Part shown: positions 4,588 to 44,913 of the stretch, piece by piece
Layout of the letters: every line of letters begins with the position of its first letter
How positions within the stretch are numbered: position 1 is the first letter of the stretch
From: Elusimicrobiota bacterium
GTDB lineage: Bacteria > Elusimicrobiota > Elusimicrobia > Elusimicrobiales > UBA9959
Length of the DNA: 64,000 nucleotides
NCBI GenBank assembly: GCA_016207645.1
Contig: JACQPH010000075.1
Location: forward strand, 8,101 to 72,100
Reading direction: 5' to 3'
The notes under the pieces: generated by a model
Databases searched by the model: none
What the model was told of the DNA's origin: nothing
Seen by the model: the letters and a program-made list of their open reading frames with translations, nothing else
Program-made: the position numbers and the translations under genes

Positions 4588-5553
4588 ATGACCATAATTT
4601 CAAGGTTTTTAGCGGTATGTCTTTGCGCCTTCCTGTCGGTCCGCTCGAGCGCGGCCGTTCCCGGTGAAAATTTAATACCTGCCGAGGGGGCCGGCCTGGA
4701 GCTGGCGCTGCAGGCCGGGGCTCTCGAAAAAGCGCCGCCCGCCGCGGCGCCGGCGTCCAGGACGCAGGAATATTCCGGTACCGAGGCCTGCTACAGGGCC
4801 GCAAGCCCGCTGACCCAGTTCCCGCCCCTGCTCTGCGCCGGCGCTTCTTCCGCCGCCCCGGCCGACTGTTTCAAGGCCGCCAAAGGTCTTACGAATTATC
4901 CCGCCATGCTCTGCTCCGGCGCCGTTTCGAACGCGCCGGTGGACTGCTTCAAGGCGGCGAAGGACCTGACCAGGTTCCCGGCCCTGCTCTGCGCCGGGGC
5001 CGTGGATCCCGTCTCCCCCGCCGCCTGCTTCAAAGCGGCCGACAAGGTCACCAGTTACCCGGCCCTGCTCTGCCAGGGAGCCGTGTCGGAAGCCCCCGTG
5101 GTCTGTTTCCGCGCCGCCGAGAAGGAAACCAGGTACCCCGCCCTGCTCTGCGCCGGCGCGGTGAGCGCCGCGCCGGCCGACTGCTTCAAGGCCGCCAAAG
5201 GCCTGACCGATTATCCCGCGCTTTTATGCTCCGGGGCCGCTTCCCTGGCGCCAATAGACTGCTTCAAGGCCGCCAAGGGCCTGACCGATTACCCGGCCCT
5301 GCTCTGCTCGGGCGCGGTCTCGAACGCGCCGGTGGACTGCTTCAACGGGCTTAAGGACCTGACGAAGAACCCCGCCCTGCTCTGTTCTCCCAACGGCGCG
5401 CTCAAGGGCGTCACGCATCACAAGATCGACCCTTCGTACAGGCACCCGTACCCTTTCCCTTTTCCGAACCCTTACCCGTTCTGGTTCCCTTTCCCGGACC
5501 CGAACACGGACCCCGGCCAGCCTCCGCCGCCCGCGCCTACCCCCCAGCCCTGA
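4588..5553 (+). CDS. secreted tandem-repeat protein (8 x 26-aa two-Cys repeats) with Pro/aromatic-rich C-terminus
   Basis: Signal peptide MTIISRFLAVCLCAFLSVRSSAA; repeats CFKAAKGLTDYPALLCSGAVSNAPVD; tail YPFPFPNPYPFWFPFPDP...PPPPAPTPQP. Confidence 0.75.
   Translation: MTIISRFLAVCLCAFLSVRSSAAVPGENLIPAEGAGLELALQAGALEKAPPAAAPASRTQEYSGTEACYRAASPLTQFPPLLCAGASSAAPADCFKAAKGLTNYPAMLCSGAVSNAPVDCFKAAKDLTRFPALLCAGAVDPVSPAACFKAADKVTSYPALLCQGAVSEAPVVCFRAAEKETRYPALLCAGAVSAAPADCFKAAKGLTDYPALLCSGAASLAPIDCFKAAKGLTDYPALLCSGAVSNAPVDCFNGLKDLTKNPALLCSPNGALKGVTHHKIDPSYRHPYPFPFPNPYPFWFPFPDPNTDPGQPPPPAPTPQP
4789..5391 (+). repeat. in-frame 78-bp tandem repeat array (about 8 units)
   Basis: Repeated coding units visible at both protein and DNA level; units 6 and 7 nearly identical. 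Confidence 0.85.
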
Positions 5554-14388: not shown

Positions 14389-14666
14389 CCGAAAAAACCG
14401 AAAAGACCGAGACCCGTTCTCCGAGGAAGGTCCTGCGCGGCCTTGTCGTCTCCGACAAGATGGCCAAGACCCGCGTGATCAGCGTGGACCACGTGATCAG
14501 CCACGCCGTGTACTCCAAGACCCTCAGGCGCCACCGCAAGTTCTACGCGCACGACGAGGCCGGGGAGTCGAAGACCGGCGACCTGGTGGAGATCACCAGC
14601 ACCCGCCCCCTGTCCGCGCTCAAGCGCTGGCGGATCAGCCGCATAGTCGAGAAGGCCTCGAAATAA
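14385..14666 (+). CDS. rpsQ: 30S ribosomal protein S17
   Basis: LRGLVVSDKMAKTRVISV...YAHDE pattern; 4-nt overlap with rpmC. Confidence 0.95.
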   Translation: MTEKTEKTETRSPRKVLRGLVVSDKMAKTRVISVDHVISHAVYSKTLRRHRKFYAHDEAGESKTGDLVEITSTRPLSALKRWRISRIVEKASK

Positions 14667-14667
14667 G

Positions 14668-14745
14668 GGCAAAGGATAAAGGCTTAAGGATAAAGGATAA
14701 AAAATTCCACCCTTTAGCCTTCATCCTTTAGCCTTAAGCCTTAGT
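14668..14745. repeat. heptamer-periodic hairpin (AAAGGAT/AAAGGCT arm vs CCTTTAG/CCTTAAG arm)
   Basis: 14679-14689 aaggcttaagg pairs with 14732-14742 ccttaagcctt; 14691-14698 pairs with 14723-14730; arms are tandem 7-mers; lies in the rpsQ-rplN spacer. Confidence 0.8.
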
Positions 14746-14765
14746 TTACAGACGGAGAACGATCT

Positions 14766-16965: not shown

Positions 16966-16996
16966 CAGGGTAGAGGGGTCAGGGTAGAGGGTAGAG
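16966..16996 (+). repeat. AGGGTAG-type heptamer block (G-rich half-site)
   Basis: cagggtagaggggtcagggtagagggtagag; exact reverse complement of 26408-26438; four G3-4 tracts at 7-nt period. Confidence 0.9.
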
Positions 16997-19142: not shown

Positions 19143-20470
19143 TGCAACAGATAACCGACATTTTTAAGATAGAGGATCTTAAAAAACGGATCTTCTTCGT
19201 GCTCGGGGCGCTCGCCGTCTACCGCCTCGGCGCGACTATCCCGATACCCGGCATCAACACCGCCGCGCTGCAGGCCATCTTCGAGGCGCAGAAGGGCTCG
19301 CTGCTGGGCTTCCTGGACATCTTCTCCGGCGGCGCGCTCAGCCGGTTCTCCATCTTCTCGATGGGCGTGATGCCCTACATCAACGCCTCCATCATCATGA
19401 GCCTGGTGCAGGGCGCGCATATCTTCCCGGTGCTCGACCGCCTGCAGAAAGAAGGCGAGAGCGGCCGCAAGAAGATCACGCAGTTCACGCGCCTGTTCAC
19501 CCTGTTCCTCGCGGCTTTCCAGTCGCTGGGCCTCACGATCGCGATGACCAAGATGCAGGCCGGCGGCGGCCCCACCATCGTGACCAACCCTACCCTGGGC
19601 TTCTATTTCGTGACCGTGCTCACGCTGGTCACCGGCACCATCTTCGTGATGTGGCTGGGCGAACAGATCACCGAGCGCGGCATCGGCAACGGCATCTCGC
19701 TGATCATCTTCGCCGGCATCGTGGACCGCCTCCCCGCGGCCGTGATGGACATGGTAAAACTGGTCCAGATAGACGAAATAAGCCTGCTCTCCGGCCTGCT
19801 GATCGTGGCCCTGGTGCTCGCGATCATCGGCTTCGTCATCTGGGTGGAGACCGCGCAGCGCAAGATCCCCGTGCAGTACGCGCAGCGCATGGTGGGCCGC
19901 AAGATGTACGGCGGCGCCTCCACCTTCCTGCCCCTGAAGGTCGACCAGAGCGGCGTCATCGCCGTCATCTTCGCGGTCTCGCTGATGAGCGTGCCCTATA
20001 CCATAGGCTCTTTCAACCCCAACGCGGCCTGGGCCCAGAAGCTGATGGCCCTGATGAACCACTCCAGCATCCTCTACCAGCTGGCTTACGTGGCGCTCAT
20101 CATCTTCTTCTGCTATTTCTACAACTCCGTCAGCATCAATCCGAAGGACCTGGCCGAGAACATGAAGAAATGGGGCGGCTTCATCCCCGGCATGCGGCCC
20201 GGCGAGCCGACGGCGCAGCACATCGAGTGGGTGATGAACCGCATAACCCTGGGCGGCGCGCTGTTCGTCTCCCTGATAGCCGTGCTGCCGGATTACCTGC
20301 GGGCCAAGTTCAACGTGCCTTTCTATTTCGGCGGCACCTCCCTGCTGATCGTGGTGGGCGTGGCGCTCGACACGATAGCCCAGACCGAGGCGCACCTGGT
20401 GATGCGCAACTACGAGGGGTTCTATAAGAACTCCAGGGTGAAAGGGCGCTGGTTCAACGTGGGAAGTTAG
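19142..20470 (+). CDS. secY: preprotein translocase subunit SecY
   Basis: 442 aa, 10-TM profile, GIMPYI-like SMGVMPYINASII motif. Confidence 0.97.
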   Translation: MQQITDIFKIEDLKKRIFFVLGALAVYRLGATIPIPGINTAALQAIFEAQKGSLLGFLDIFSGGALSRFSIFSMGVMPYINASIIMSLVQGAHIFPVLDRLQKEGESGRKKITQFTRLFTLFLAAFQSLGLTIAMTKMQAGGGPTIVTNPTLGFYFVTVLTLVTGTIFVMWLGEQITERGIGNGISLIIFAGIVDRLPAAVMDMVKLVQIDEISLLSGLLIVALVLAIIGFVIWVETAQRKIPVQYAQRMVGRKMYGGASTFLPLKVDQSGVIAVIFAVSLMSVPYTIGSFNPNAAWAQKLMALMNHSSILYQLAYVALIIFFCYFYNSVSINPKDLAENMKKWGGFIPGMRPGEPTAQHIEWVMNRITLGGALFVSLIAVLPDYLRAKFNVPFYFGGTSLLIVVGVALDTIAQTEAHLVMRNYEGFYKNSRVKGRWFNVGS

Positions 20471-20478
20471 AAGATGGT

Positions 20479-20530
20479 CGCCAGTAGCCAGTCGCCGGTG
20501 ACCTGGGTGGCTGGAAACTGGAAACCTTTT
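20479..20530 (+). repeat. heptamer-built hairpin with T-run (terminator-like) in the secY-adk spacer
   Basis: (CGCCAGT AGCCAGT CGCCGGT) at 20479-20499 pairs with (CTGGAAA CTGGAAA) region at 20510-20521, followed by CCTTTTT. Confidence 0.55.
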
Positions 20531-20541
20531 TCGGAAGCTAT

Positions 20542-25298: not shown

Positions 25299-26342
25299 AT
25301 GGGACTGTTCGATTATTTTTTCAGCCTGTTCTCCAACGATATCGGGATCGATCTCGGCACCGCGAATACCCTTGTCTACGTCAAAGGCAAGGGTATCGTG
25401 CTGCGCGAGCCCTCGGTGGTCGCGATAGACAAGAACAGGCGGAAGGTGCTGGCCGTGGGCGCGGAGGCCAAGCTGATGCTCGGCCGCACCCCGTCGAACA
25501 TCGTGGCCGTGCGCCCGCTGCGGAACGGCGTGATCGCCGACTTCGAGCTGACGCAGGAGCTGATAAAATATTTCATCCGCAAGGTGCATAACAGGCGCAG
25601 CCTGCTGCACCCCCGCATCGTGATAGGCATACCGTCGGGTATAACGGAAGTGGAGAAGCGCGCGGTGCAGGAGTCCGCCGAGCAGGCGGGCGCCCGCGAG
25701 GTGCAGCTGATAGAGGAGCCGATGGCCGCCGCCATAGGCTCGGACCTGCCGGTGTCGGAGCCGCACGCGAGCATGATCTGCGACATCGGCGGCGGCACCA
25801 CCGAGGTGGCGGTCATCTCGCTGGGCGGCATGGTGGTGGCGAAGTCCATCGACGTGGCCGGGGACGAGATGGACGAGTGCATAGTGCAGTATTTCCGGCG
25901 CAAGCACAATTTAGTCATAGGCGAAACTACCGCGGAAGAGGTAAAGATACAGATCGGCTCGGTTTTCCCTTTAAAAGAAGAAAAGACCATTGAAGTTAAG
26001 GGCAGGGACCAGGCCAAGGGGCTGCCCAAGACGATTCTCGTGACTTCTGAAGAGATTAGGCAGGCCCTGATGGAGCCTGTCCAGCTGATAGTGGACGTGA
26101 TCAAGCAGGTGCTGGAGGCTACTCCGCCCGAACTTTCCTCGGACCTCGTGGACCGCGGGATGGTGCTGGCGGGGGGAGGTTCCCTCCTGCGCGGTTTCCC
26201 GGAGCTGATCCGGCAGGAAACCGAACTGCCCGTCCACAGGGCTGCCGATCCTTTGAGCTGCGTCGCCTTGGGCTGCGGGAAGTATCTTGAAGAGCTGGAC
26301 AAGATCCAGCGCCCCGAGTTCCTGAACTCCTACCGGAGTTAA
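25299..26342 (+). CDS. mreB: rod shape-determining protein MreB
   Basis: [14 protein letters not shown] and actin-fold motifs. Confidence 0.97.
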
Positions 26343-26343
26343 T

Positions 26344-26438
26344 TCAGGGTAGAGGGTTTAGGGTAGAGGGTTTAGGGTATAGGGCAGGAGTTCCTTGGTT
26401 CCGCGAACTCTACCCTCTACCCTGACCCCTCTACCCTG
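26344..26438. repeat. AGGGTWK-heptamer hairpin (G-rich 5' arm, C-rich 3' arm) in the mreB-mreC spacer
   Basis: Six GGG tracts at exact 7-nt period (26347, 26354, 26361, 26368, 26375, 26382); complementary arm ctctaccctctaccctgacccctctaccctg at 26408-26438. Confidence 0.85.
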
Positions 26439-26448
26439 AGGCAAGGCG

Positions 26449-36284: not shown

Positions 36285-36470
36285 ATGAAAAGAAAGGACC
36301 TTGTAAGACATTTGATGGGCAAAGGCTGCGTGCTCTCCCGCGAGGGCGGGAAATATTCCGTTTTCCTGAACCCGGTCACCGGCAAGGAAGTCCCCGTCAC
36401 CAGGCATACCGAGATAGCGGATTTCACCGTGCGCAAGATCTGCCGGGACCTGGGAGTGGACCAGCCATAA
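36285..36470 (+). CDS. hicA: HicA-family toxin (YcfA-like mRNA interferase)
   Basis: 61 aa, KRKDLVRHLMGKGCVLSREGGKYSVF...VTRHTEIADFTVRKICRDLG pattern. Confidence 0.75.
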   Translation: MKRKDLVRHLMGKGCVLSREGGKYSVFLNPVTGKEVPVTRHTEIADFTVRKICRDLGVDQP

Positions 36471-36574
36471 GAAAGGATGAAGGATCAAGGATGAAGGATG
36501 AGGGGCGGAAGCGCGGAAAAGCGAAAGTATTTTCTCTGCCCTTCAGCCTTTATCCTTTAGCCTTTATCCTTTCC
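36471..36574. repeat. heptamer-periodic hairpin (AAGGATG arm, CCTTTAK arm)
   Basis: 5' arm 36471-36505 (gaaaggat gaaggat caaggat gaaggat gagggg), 3' arm 36540-36574; 36547-36572 is a 25/26 reverse-complement match to 14671-14696. Confidence 0.8.
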
Positions 36575-36925
36575 TCGTGCGCCGCGGCGAAACTGGACGT
36601 GATACAGGTAGGTCCCTGGTTCGCCCCGCGCGACTGGCGCGAAGTGGAGGTGTTCTCTTCGCGCGGGGAGACCGGCGCCCCCTGGGGCGGCATAGCCATC
36701 ATCCACGGCGGGCGGGTCGGCGCGAAGAGCGGCGAAAAGCGCCTGGAGGCGCTCAAGCTCGAGGCCCGGAAAAAGGCCGCCGAAATAGGGGCCGACGGCG
36801 TGATCCTGACCGTCAACTCCGTCCCCTCCGGGCCGGAGATGGGCGTGTATCAGGAGCCCGAGCTCTACCTGAGCGCCCTGGCCATAAAATATGTCACAGC
36901 AGTCTCCACTCCGCCGGCAAAATAA
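36491..36925 (+). CDS. lipoprotein, function unknown
   Basis: Basic n-region, hydrophobic core and ILSSC lipobox; start codon and signal peptide lie inside the repeat hairpin. Confidence 0.6.
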   Translation: MKDEGRKRGKAKVFSLPFSLYPLAFILSSCAAAKLDVIQVGPWFAPRDWREVEVFSSRGETGAPWGGIAIIHGGRVGAKSGEKRLEALKLEARKKAAEIGADGVILTVNSVPSGPEMGVYQEPELYLSALAIKYVTAVSTPPAK

Positions 36926-41236: not shown

Positions 41237-41276
41237 CATTGGTAAAGCACCCTCTAAAAAATCTAAAATATAAATA

Positions 41277-41828
41277 ATGCATAAGGACCTGCGGGAGGTG
41301 CTGCTTTCCCGGCCCGAGCTGGAAGCCGGCGTAAAGAAGCTGGGCGAGCGGATCTCCGCCGACTACGCGGGCCGCTGCGTCACGCTGGTGGGCGTGCTGA
41401 AGGGCTGCGTGCTCTTCATGTCGGACCTGGCCAAGAGCGTTTCCGTGGACACCCGCATGGATTTCATGATGCTCTCCTCTTATTCCGGCGCGCATTCCAC
41501 CGGCGTGGTGCGCATCCTGCTGGACCTGAAGGAGAGCATCGAGGACTGCGACGTGCTTATCGTCGAGGACATAGTGGATTCCGGCCTGACGATGGAGTAC
41601 ATGCTGCAGAACCTCAGGACCCGCCGGCCCCGGTCGCTGGAGGTCTGCACGCTGCTGGACAAGCCCAGCCGCCGCCGGGCGCAGGTGCCGATAAAATACG
41701 CCGGCTTCACCATCGAGGACAAATTCGTGGTGGGCTACGGGCTGGACTTTAACGGGCTCTACCGCAACCTCCCGTACATCGGCGTTTTGAAGCCGGAGGC
41801 CATAGAAGGAAAGAATATATGCCGTTGA
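41277..41828 (+). CDS. hpt: hypoxanthine phosphoribosyltransferase
   Basis: VLIVEDIVDSGLT PRPP-binding motif; hpt-ftsH synteny. Confidence 0.93.
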   Translation: MHKDLREVLLSRPELEAGVKKLGERISADYAGRCVTLVGVLKGCVLFMSDLAKSVSVDTRMDFMMLSSYSGAHSTGVVRILLDLKESIEDCDVLIVEDIVDSGLTMEYMLQNLRTRRPRSLEVCTLLDKPSRRRAQVPIKYAGFTIEDKFVVGYGLDFNGLYRNLPYIGVLKPEAIEGKNICR

Positions 41829-44483: not shown

Positions 44484-44520
44484 GATATGCCCCCTCTTCA
44501 ACTCCGCCCGGCATCCACGG

Positions 44521-44552
44521 CCCTCTACCCCCTACCCTCTACCCTCTACCCT
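44521..44552 (-). repeat. CCCTCTA-type heptamer block (C-rich half-site; G-rich on minus strand)
   Basis: ccctctaccccctaccctctaccctctaccct immediately upstream of the cdaR-like ATG. Confidence 0.8.
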
Positions 44553-44557
44553 TCTTT

Positions 44558-44656
44558 ATGAACATCCAGGAACTTTTCACCCGCAACTGGCAGATAAAAC
44601 TGCTCTCCCTCATCATAGCCCTGCTGATCTGGTACTTTATCACCGGCGGCGCTTAA
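44558..44656 (+). pseudogene. cdaR: truncated cdaR (YbbR-like) gene: N-terminal TM helix only
   Basis: MNIQELFTRNWQIKLLSLIIALLIWYFITGGA resembles YbbR/CdaR N-termini (NxW..K..ALL.A.LLW); stop codon abuts the repeat element at 44657. Confidence 0.5.
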
Positions 44657-44808
44657 GTTACTGCCCGGGTTCGGTGGTGGCCGGGGTTTTGCCCCGCGCA
44701 CCCGGAAGAGGAAACCCTTGCGTGGTTTCCCCCCGAAGCGGGGCCCCCCATCCGCAAGGGTGCGCGAAACAAAACCCCGTCCGCCCCCTCCAGCACCTGA
44801 GCAGTTAC
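44657..44808. repeat. MITE/REP-like long palindromic element, copy 2
   Basis: Termini gttactgc / gcagttac; same core as copies 1 and 3; arms fold into a long imperfect hairpin. Confidence 0.85.
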
Positions 44809-44913
44809 CTTTACCTATAAAATGTCTAGGCCCTAAAACAGCCGTTTCAGGGGCCTTTCGACCCTAGGTCCTTTTCGCGATAAAGGGCATAATAATATTA
44901 ACACGTAAAACTA

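Follow-up and report, generated by a model that had tools for sequence, protein, structure and literature searches.

The DNA considered here, termed the window, is a stretch of 64,000 nucleotides (nt) from contig JACQPH010000075.1 of an Elusimicrobiota bacterium (assembly GCA_016207645.1). Six of its intergenic spacers contain blocks of tandem heptamers, and at four of these loci a block is followed by its complement, so that the pair is predicted to fold into a hairpin. The neighbouring genes were assigned by NCBIfam to S17, L14, S8, L6, SecY, Adk, MreB, MreC and CdaA and by Pfam to HicA, in agreement with the gene names given in a sequence-only reading of the window, which had singled out these hairpins. 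SecY shares 93-95% identity with proteins from Elusimicrobia metagenome-assembled genomes (MAGs) recovered from groundwater, and hence, the host is an uncultivated member of the Elusimicrobia.

The observation itself is real and confirmed, yet elements of this kind are already known and their inverted pairing has already been described. The new lead, which merits follow-up, is the association of such arrays with genes of family PF05635 (“23S rRNA intervening sequence protein”, a four-helix bundle with a bAvd domain). All 23 PF05635 genes examined adjoin arrays, the usual layout being a purine arm 5' of the start codon, with its pyrimidine complement at the stop codon. We consider it somewhat probable that the six loci are members, devoid of an open reading frame (ORF), of a family of selfish palindromes that resemble the intervening sequences (IVS) of 23S rRNA.

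Heptamer arrays and palindromes in the window

The 34 intergenic spacers of the window were scored for self-matches at a lag of 7 nt, with a threshold of at least 15 of 21 per spacer, and compared with 500 dinucleotide-preserving shuffles. Six spacers reached the threshold, compared with a mean of 0.06 and a maximum of one among the shuffled spacers, and any other lag within 3-12 yielded zero or one spacer in the same scan. Tandem Repeats Finder (TRF) called period-7 arrays at all six loci, with 3.7-5.6 units at five of them, and all six loci lie in spacers between protein-coding genes. The earlier claim of a dispersed family of heptamer-built hairpins in spacers is borne out. Throughout the whole 64 kb the sole further stretch above the threshold is A/T-rich (41257-41286); it has a weak period of 7 (TCTAAAAAATCTAAAATATAAATAATG), lies just 5' of a gene starting at 41277 and is unlike the other arrays.

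The four paired loci have predicted folding energies of -30.9 to -63.1 kcal/mol (z -4.5 to -7.5), which none of 200 shuffles equalled, and stems of approximately 25-40 bp are predicted at 14667, 26343 and 36471. The two loci previously recognised as single arms (16967 and 44521) do not fold, with z about 0. The elements and their parts are as follows, a strand being given for the single arms only:

14667-14745, palindrome in the rpsQ/rplN spacer (TRF; fold of 14664-14750, -30.9 kcal/mol, z -4.5)
14671-14701, its purine arm, AAAGGAT x4.4 (TRF), with units AAAGGAT, AAAGGCT and TAAGGAT
14702-14710, its centre
14711-14742, its pyrimidine arm, CCTTTAG x4.6 (TRF), with units CCTTTAG, CCTTCAT and CCTTAAG
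16967-16996, plus strand, single purine arm in the rpsH/rplF spacer (TRF, AGGGTAG x4.3; no fold)
20470-20532, degenerate period-7 hairpin in the secY/adk spacer (lag-7 score 15/21; fold of 20470-20541, -35.0 kcal/mol, z -5.1)
26343-26439, palindrome in the mreB/mreC spacer (TRF; fold of 26340-26448, -63.1 kcal/mol, z -6.5)
26346-26384, its G-rich arm, AGGGTAT x5.6 (TRF), with units AGGGTAG and AGGGTTT
26385-26407, its centre, which contains the conserved core CAGGAGTTCCTTGG
26408-26439, its C-rich arm (TRF 26408-26437, CTCTACC x4.3)
36471-36574, palindrome 3' of hicA (TRF; fold of 36468-36580, -58.5 kcal/mol, z -7.5)
36472-36501, its purine arm (TRF 36473-36501, AAGGATG x4.1), with units AAGGATG and AAGGATC
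36502-36539, its centre
36540-36574, its pyrimidine arm (TRF 36547-36572, CCTTTAT x3.7), with units CCTTTAG and CCTTTAT
44521-44552, plus strand, single pyrimidine arm 3' of cdaA (TRF, CCCTCTA x4.6; no fold)

The arrays start 1-7 nt past the upstream stop codon and finish just ahead of the next ribosome-binding site. The first element lies between the S17 stop codon (14664-14666) and the L14 ATG (14766), beginning 4 nt past the former and ending 20 nt ahead of the latter, and the arm at 16967 likewise begins 4 nt past the S8 stop codon. The units of this arm follow the order AGGGTAG, AGGGGTC, AGGGTAG, AGGGTAG, and the 32-mer at 16966, which includes this irregular order, is the exact reverse complement of 26408-26439. 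The secY/adk locus is the weakest member: its units (GTCGCCA-type, then TGGAAAC) are degenerate, with just 2.1 copies of CTGGAAA called by TRF (20511-20525), its purine polarity is reversed, and it is the only element having a U5 run, which lies within the 3' arm. In (AAGGATG)n arrays such as 36473-36501, and at many of the related loci L131-L250, a Shine-Dalgarno-like AAGGA precedes each ATG by 6 nt, and the resulting mini-ORFs overlap (ATG AAG GAT GAA GGA TGA, encoding MKDEG*; MKDQG* in the window). The arm at 44521 stops 5 nt ahead of the ATG (44558) of an ORF that resembles the CdaR/YbbR N-terminus and ends after 32 codons (MNIQELFTRNWQIKLLSLIIALLIWYFITGGA*), so that the gene 3' of cdaA appears as the CdaR/YbbR-like stub named before, i.e., a remnant; no ORF of at least 60 codons is found in 44484-44913 (about 430 nt).

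Intrinsic terminators have a short GC-rich stem, a loop of 3-8 nt and a directly adjoining U-tract, a combination that the elements do not show. With stems of 25-40 bp and no U-tract, and with no element called a terminator in a simple promoter/terminator scan of 12-28 kb, the earlier view that these are not ordinary terminators holds. Rfam, applied to the whole window at gathering thresholds, matched three tRNAs only, with no match on the elements and no rRNA gene. Elsewhere in the window, the ORF at 4588-5553 contains a 78-nt tandem repeat (4820-5384, 7.2 copies, 68% matches) and a 30-nt repeat (5444-5501) that, judged by eye, seems to code for a proline- and aromatic-rich stretch.

Turnover, dispersal and general rules of the class

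The comparison of orthologous spacers proposed in the sequence-only reading identifies the elements as rapidly turned-over insertions or expansions, which relatives lack or carry with other unit numbers. The S17/L14 spacer measures 99 nt in the window and 24-54 nt in the syntenic loci of four relatives lacking the element, and the mreB/mreC spacer measures 106 nt in the window versus 52-53 nt, with small GC hairpins, in relatives lacking it. In L002, L003 and L005 the latter spacer (e.g., L002 17290-17345) carries two small GC hairpins, CCCCTTTAGAGGGG and CCCCCCGCAAGGGGGG, with the C-rich arm first, a polarity opposite to that of the heptamer palindromes. In a MAG of 86-92% nucleotide identity (L097), the mreB/mreC element occupies the orthologous site with 9.7 + 5.3 units (also given as 11 and 5), compared to 5.6 + 4.3 in the window, and the copy number of orthologous arms shifts by whole units.

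The rpsH/rplF arm type is also present in that spacer of the distant relative L007 and absent from L006 and L002-L005. L006 and L007 share an identical SecY and 96% overall identity; their spacers differ by indels of 65-185 nt, several of which are heptamer-repeat elements or portions of them, and a purine arm, core and pyrimidine arm in L006 correspond to the pyrimidine arm alone in L007. At this level of identity (96%), genomes gain or lose arms or entire elements. Elsewhere in the same operon, the spacers of these two genomes contain different units (AAAGATT, CAGTGGT, TAGTGAA, TTAAGGA). The loss of an arm between L006 and L007 lets single arms appear as deletion remnants, and the arm at 44521-44552 agrees with this, since in L056 (Elusimicrobia UBA9634) G-arm, core and C-arm are complete 5' of seemingly the same gene start (by eye, ATGAACATC). 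The window arm is probably the leftover of a complete pair. Comparing filled and empty sites, no target-site duplication was found at the element boundaries, and the elements thus differ from miniature inverted-repeat transposable elements, which combine terminal inverted repeats with such a duplication.

In Elusimicrobia, pairs composed of AGGGTAG-type units (family B) enclose a common, non-repetitive core of approximately 20 nt, GCAGAAATAAGGAAYTCCTTA, which was aligned for 14 elements from several Elusimicrobia MAG assemblies with about 51-63% GC; the core at 26385-26407 of the window aligns in the opposite orientation. Its recurrence at unrelated loci indicates that copies were dispersed and did not grow independently in place. 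Similarly, a centre resembling 36502-36539 is found at the non-orthologous locus L027, between a purine arm of AAGGCT, AAGGAT and AGGGAT units and a CCCTCTA arm. This mixed pair joins AAGGAT-type units (family A) with those of family B, and the two unit families distinguished earlier thus form a continuum. The asymmetric core shows no significant orientation relative to genes (7 vs. 2), and (GGGTAGA)n yielded 4 matches only in 2.9 million viral contigs, which does not support carriage by phages.

The repeats are by no means restricted to the window; such a restriction had been named in the sequence-only reading as adverse to its proposal. A scan with AGGGTAGAGGGNNNAGGGTAGAGGGT, using one genome per species, returned at least 119 loci across many phyla, and those listed belong to Elusimicrobia, Gemmatimonadota, Cyanobacteria, Chloroflexota, Planctomycetota, Bacteroidota, Methylomirabilota, Acidobacteriota and others. 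When metagenomes were scanned for four AAGGMT units, at least 120 loci were returned, with 28-66% GC among those listed.

General rules emerge from the fetched loci. In 124 complementary array pairs the purine-rich arm comes first in 107 and second in 2, the remainder being weakly skewed, and the same preference is seen whether the spacer is co-directional (46:2), convergent (11:0) or divergent (16:0). Seen from either strand, such a pair begins with its purine arm, and therefore, the “strand asymmetry” claimed earlier is a strand-symmetric polarity and no asymmetry of the transcribed strand. Period-7 arrays recovered as by-catch peak at 4.0-4.9 units (about 30-33 nt), while for periods 6, 8 and 9 the number of arrays falls off from 2 units onwards; the period-7 peak at 4 units is also seen for units having only GG, and units without a G run peak at 3-4. 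Arms consist of about four heptamers each (octamers in some lineages), span roughly 28-33 nt and are convergent, with the purine arm 5'. In co-directional spacers, single purine-sense arms start at a median of 4 nt past the upstream stop codon and single pyrimidine-sense arms lie at a median of 35 nt ahead of the next start codon.

These rules bear on the possibility that the arrays are pure microsatellites, where slippage favoured at 7 nt expands units in place and template switching yields the inverted arm, with neither dispersal nor a linked gene. Whole-unit variation in copy number is what this account expects, period 7 is over-represented (396 TRF rows in the fetched loci, vs. 55 and 85 for periods 6 and 8, respectively), and an excess of heptameric repeats in many bacteria has been published together with the slippage idea (Mrazek 2007, as cited in PMC4692102). 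Yet, copying from one site to another is required for the conserved core and for irregular unit orders that are identical at unrelated loci, lengths peak near 4 units rather than decaying, and neither the 107:2 polarity nor the association with PF05635 is predicted, which leaves in-place expansion as an improbable explanation.

G-quadruplex regulatory elements have been proposed for the Xanthomonas GGGAATC units, which form quadruplexes in vitro (PMC4692102). The family-B arms at 26346-26384 and 16967-16996 would qualify, as they contain at least four GGG runs at 4-nt spacing, and about four units are the minimum for one quadruplex. Units of family A and many related ones, however, have only GG or no G run and share length mode and polarity, and the complementary arm would compete through hairpin formation; as an explanation for the window, quadruplexes are highly improbable. 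As a general account they were rejected on the grounds of the length modes of GG-only units and of units without a G run.

The elements might also be selected at the mRNA level, as intercistronic hairpins that would tune ribosomal-protein and mre operons through a more stable upstream message, attenuated read-through or directed processing. The hairpins are very stable and tightly placed between stop codon (1-7 nt) and next ribosome-binding site, the mreB/mreC, rpsH/rplF and cdaA/next-gene spacers are recurrently occupied in divergent genomes, and at two window loci the sense fold beats the antisense fold. Over 39 co-directional pairs, however, the sense fold is stronger in 17 and the antisense fold in 22 (Wilcoxon p = 0.50), and a G-U versus A-C test gave 127 vs. 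129 G-U pairs for the two strands. Occupied spacers comprise 41 co-directional, 11 divergent and 9 convergent cases, as opposed to 38-44, 9-12 and 8-10 expected at random (p about 0.75), and close relatives lack elements at the same spacers. Together with the missing U-tract and Rfam match, these results render selected mRNA elements unlikely. The placement in highly expressed operons emphasised before is likewise unspecific, given that Pfam identifies assorted housekeeping genes next to related elements. Among the roles listed in the sequence-only reading, “REP-like mobile sequences” fits best, whereas a role in mRNA processing or stability is not backed by the G-U versus A-C test.

PF05635 genes and known repeat systems

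Small genes with arrays on both sides were originally inspected for a transposase; instead, 2 of 10 were assigned by Pfam to PF05635. An iterative search of all six-frame ORFs of the fetched, repeat-selected loci identified seven PF05635 genes, all of which adjoin arrays, most on both sides, compared with 39 of 1,094 among all genes. Six homologues on long metagenomic or MAG contigs were not selected for arrays (Elusimicrobiota, WOR-3, Curtissbacteria and three others), and all six are enclosed by complementary arrays: a run of about four purine-rich units, each 7 or 8 nt long, reaches to the ATG, and the pyrimidine-rich array begins at or over the stop codon. Plasmid homologues from cultured bacteria have an adjacent array in 10 of 10 cases, about 6 in the canonical layout; the tblastn matches on plasmids stem mostly from Nostoc, Calothrix and Trichormus, genera with heptamer repeats already in the literature, and also from Gemmatirosa, Azospirillum and Riemerella. 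Since GC content confounded a comparison of cognate and non-cognate duplex energies, shuffle controls were used: the predicted duplex between the 70 nt upstream and the stop region beats all 100 shuffles in 11 of 20 loci, and in three further loci at most 3 of 100 shuffles are as stable. The family is very large, with 7,651 matches at E <= 1e-15 among 8,000 candidates scored.

In L030, an Elusimicrobia MAG locus, a PF05635 gene is flanked by AGGGTAG (family-B) arms with the conserved core alongside, i.e., the arm type and core of 26343-26439. The PF05635 ORF of L030 (2-871, minus strand) lacks a stop codon before the pyrimidine arm and continues in the same frame across the array (LPSTLSPLP) to join the adjacent gene, an apparent fusion. 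Several plasmid loci are worth recording. PF05635 genes with repeat arms lie between cas6 and cas4 on a Pseudanabaena plasmid (L264, 401-760) and between cmr2 and cmr3 on a Picosynechococcus plasmid (L269, 392-748). The homologue on Azospirillum lipoferum 4B plasmid AZO_p2 (L267, 380-770) has canonical GAGGACG/GTCTTCT arms and no gene entry in the PLSDB gene table, which is known to be incomplete. On Nostoc punctiforme pNPUN02 (L262), the arms at 349-380 and 734-765 around PF05635 consist of TCAGGAG and of CTGACTC and CTCCTGA; they fit MTYCTGA, the consensus of the paired “class 3 global regulator sites” of Geobacter metallireducens. Many listed homologues sit on contigs of about 0.5-1.5 kb, a pattern that assembly breaks at flanking repeats would produce.

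Paired, convergent arrays of about four heptamers have been documented in Xanthomonas, G. metallireducens and cyanobacteria. Rehm et al. (2015) counted 186 and 183 GGGAATC repeats in Xcc and Xac, respectively, mostly with four units, and 70 and 75 of these cases are convergent inverted pairs that possibly form stem-loops; the GGGAATC and Nostoc GGGGA(C/T)T repeats differ in length from one related species to another, but whether a repeat is single or paired is usually preserved (PMC4692102). In G. metallireducens, the “global regulator binding sites” of Aklujkar et al. (2009) are pairs of hepta- and octanucleotide arrays, one on each strand (PMC2700814), with 3-5 tandem units of 7-9 nt and a variable distance between the two, in spacers including those within operons (proBA). 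The sites are absent from the sister species, and the class-3 unit MTYCTGA matches the N. punctiforme PF05635 arms (CTCCTGA/TCAGGAG). They were read as IHF/HU binding sites, a proposal without experimental support, and their unit sequences are unlike those of the window. Inverted pairing, put forward as what sets the window elements apart from known heptamers, is thus no new feature: like the Xanthomonas and Nostoc repeats they are intergenic tandem heptamers of about 4 units that vary in length, and as in Xanthomonas they form convergent pairs, here at four of the six loci. In contrast to the one dominant G-rich unit of each Xanthomonas or Nostoc genome, Elusimicrobia have several families (AAGGAT-type, AGGGTAG-type and others in relatives), and their elements feature a conserved central core.

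The cyanobacterial STRR heptamers, to which the elements were likened earlier, are said to have been described by Mazel in 1990 mainly as direct repeats. The analogy is apt as to the kind of repeat, but the window elements are not members of the named family, which is cyanobacterial and has other units (CCCCAGT, TTGGTCA, CAACAGT). TAACTGA repeats internal to ribosomal-protein operons of Beggiatoaceae (MacGregor 2015) are mainly direct as well, with one indirect repeat among 170 sets (PMC4679880). STRR and TAACTGA repeats share with the window elements the tandem heptamers in spacers, including those of ribosomal-protein operons, and the occurrence of a single unit across phyla.

Repetitive extragenic palindromes (REPs) and their doublets (REPINs), mobilised by a REP-associated tyrosine transposase (RAYT) of the Y1 HUH type, offer another parallel. 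REPs consist of a 5' GT(A/G)G head followed by one GC-rich imperfect palindrome of about 20-35 nt (PMC2817692). They resemble the window elements as abundant extragenic hairpin doublets without target-site duplication, non-autonomous and tied to one repeat-flanked single-copy gene (PMC2817692; PMC3116915). The window is dense in such doublets (about 6 per 64 kb), the missing duplication is as expected from HUH transposition, and family-B units include GTAG, a REP head tetranucleotide (PMC2817692). Family-A units, however, have no GT(A/G)G head, the arms are tandem arrays rather than one head and palindrome, and the gene within arms encodes a four-helix bundle of PF05635 instead of a RAYT. The RAYT-type transposase proposed as a search target did not appear among 20 array-flanking ORFs scanned with Pfam in the fetched loci, which gave housekeeping genes, two PF05635 genes and no transposase or Y1 domain. 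Mobilisation by a RAYT is therefore very unlikely.

Arrays that bind an oligomeric protein, on DNA or RNA, would explain a modal length of about 4-5 units irrespective of unit sequence; candidates are IHF/HU, as proposed in Geobacter, S1, Csp or CsrA, as proposed in Beggiatoa, and a pentameric PF05635 protein. AAGGATG includes GGA, the motif bound by CsrA, which counts in favour of such binding. Moreover, the PF05635 proteins encoded beside arrays form toroidal homopentamers (Lin 2006, as cited in PMC4990558). A single sequence-specific binder is hard to reconcile with the many unit sequences within one genome, and we judge protein-binding arrays to be a rather unlikely basis of the elements.

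A published precedent is the 23S rRNA IVS of Coxiella burnetii. It has a 28-bp terminal stem, with GACAGAT heptamers of strain-variable number 5' of an S23p ORF (Warrier et al. 2016, PMC4990558), and RNase III excises it in vitro; its ends as mapped in vivo fall within the stem (PMC4990558). The window elements share with it the long terminal-repeat stem of similar size and the purine-rich, variable tandem heptamers in the 5' arm; the IVS is deemed selfish, and the same protein family is encoded in the loop of related loci. The Coxiella IVS lies in helix 45 of 23S rRNA and bears an ORF, whereas the window elements occupy mRNA spacers, are inserted in neither helix 25 nor helix 45 of 23S rRNA and have no PF05635 ORF in the loop. 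Cutting by RNase III has been shown for the IVS and would apply to the window elements by analogy. PF05635 proteins, IVS and RNase III are not mentioned in PMC4692102, PMC2700814 or PMC4679880, and in a literature search that did not cover subscription journals, only the Coxiella paper (PMC4990558) was found to name heptamer arrays and the four-helix-bundle/S23 protein together.

Palindromes as proposed relatives of an IVS-like selfish element

If the six loci belong to an IVS-like selfish family, they would be its non-autonomous relatives, maintained only in the neutral gap that separates a stop codon from the following ribosome-binding site. In complete copies the purine arm would act as the ribosome-binding region of the enclosed ORF. 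This would account for the purine-first polarity, because the purine arm must sit 5' of the ORF, and a palindrome of reverse polarity could not supply a ribosome-binding region in either ORF orientation. Once transcribed, the 25-40-bp stems would be substrates of RNase III in the polycistronic mRNA, as judged from the Coxiella IVS. The reverse direction is also possible, with the window palindromes serving as preferred landing sites of an IVS-like element.

Several points weigh against this interpretation. A jackhmmer search found no PF05635 ORF in the 64-kb window, and the proposed link to these genes rests on the shared arms and core of L030 and on the general association. The loci were chosen for containing arrays, which makes background rates approximate, and their genes were called by our own crude, composition-based caller, which was about 95% strand-correct in test loci and consistent with Pfam on 20 ORFs. 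In L030, L143 and L266, the gene lies beside a complete palindrome and an extra pyrimidine arm, and hence, it could insert into pre-existing palindromes; at the PF05635 genes of L238, L260, L261, L263 and L264 the canonical layout is missing. In ORF-less copies, the lack of a G-U bias on the sense strand speaks against RNase III stems being under selection at present. Finally, filled and empty sites and the 20 flanking ORFs revealed no mechanism of mobility, target-site duplication or transposase.

A broader proposal, which as one joint claim we regard as tentative and rather doubtful, is that hepta- and octamer palindromes across phyla, comprising STRR-type repeats, Xanthomonas GGGAATC pairs and the Elusimicrobia hairpins, are non-autonomous derivatives or landing sites of a single unrecognised selfish element. 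Its full form would consist of a purine array, a PF05635 (Avd-like) gene and a pyrimidine array, and the 23S rRNA IVS would merely be its best-known insertion site. Such an element would ride on host transcripts, with the purine arm stopping upstream translation and serving as the ribosome-binding site of the enclosed gene, and RNase III would cut the element out at the stem. Avd partners a reverse transcriptase in diversity-generating retroelements, which makes spread via an RNA intermediate conceivable.

Bacterial heptamer repeats have been on record since 1990 and occur in excess in many phyla, while their origin and function have remained unexplained, and the same holds true for the role of PF05635 proteins outside diversity-generating retroelements. 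The reproducible physical link between the two renders both puzzles testable and raises the questions of whether PF05635 proteins bind or mobilise the arrays, whether RNase III cuts within operons and whether ORF-less elements derive from ORF-bearing copies. As to the Elusimicrobia genome itself, the most likely reading of the hairpins is selfish or neutral DNA that evolves fast and enlarges the spacers of essential operons, rather than a dedicated regulatory system.

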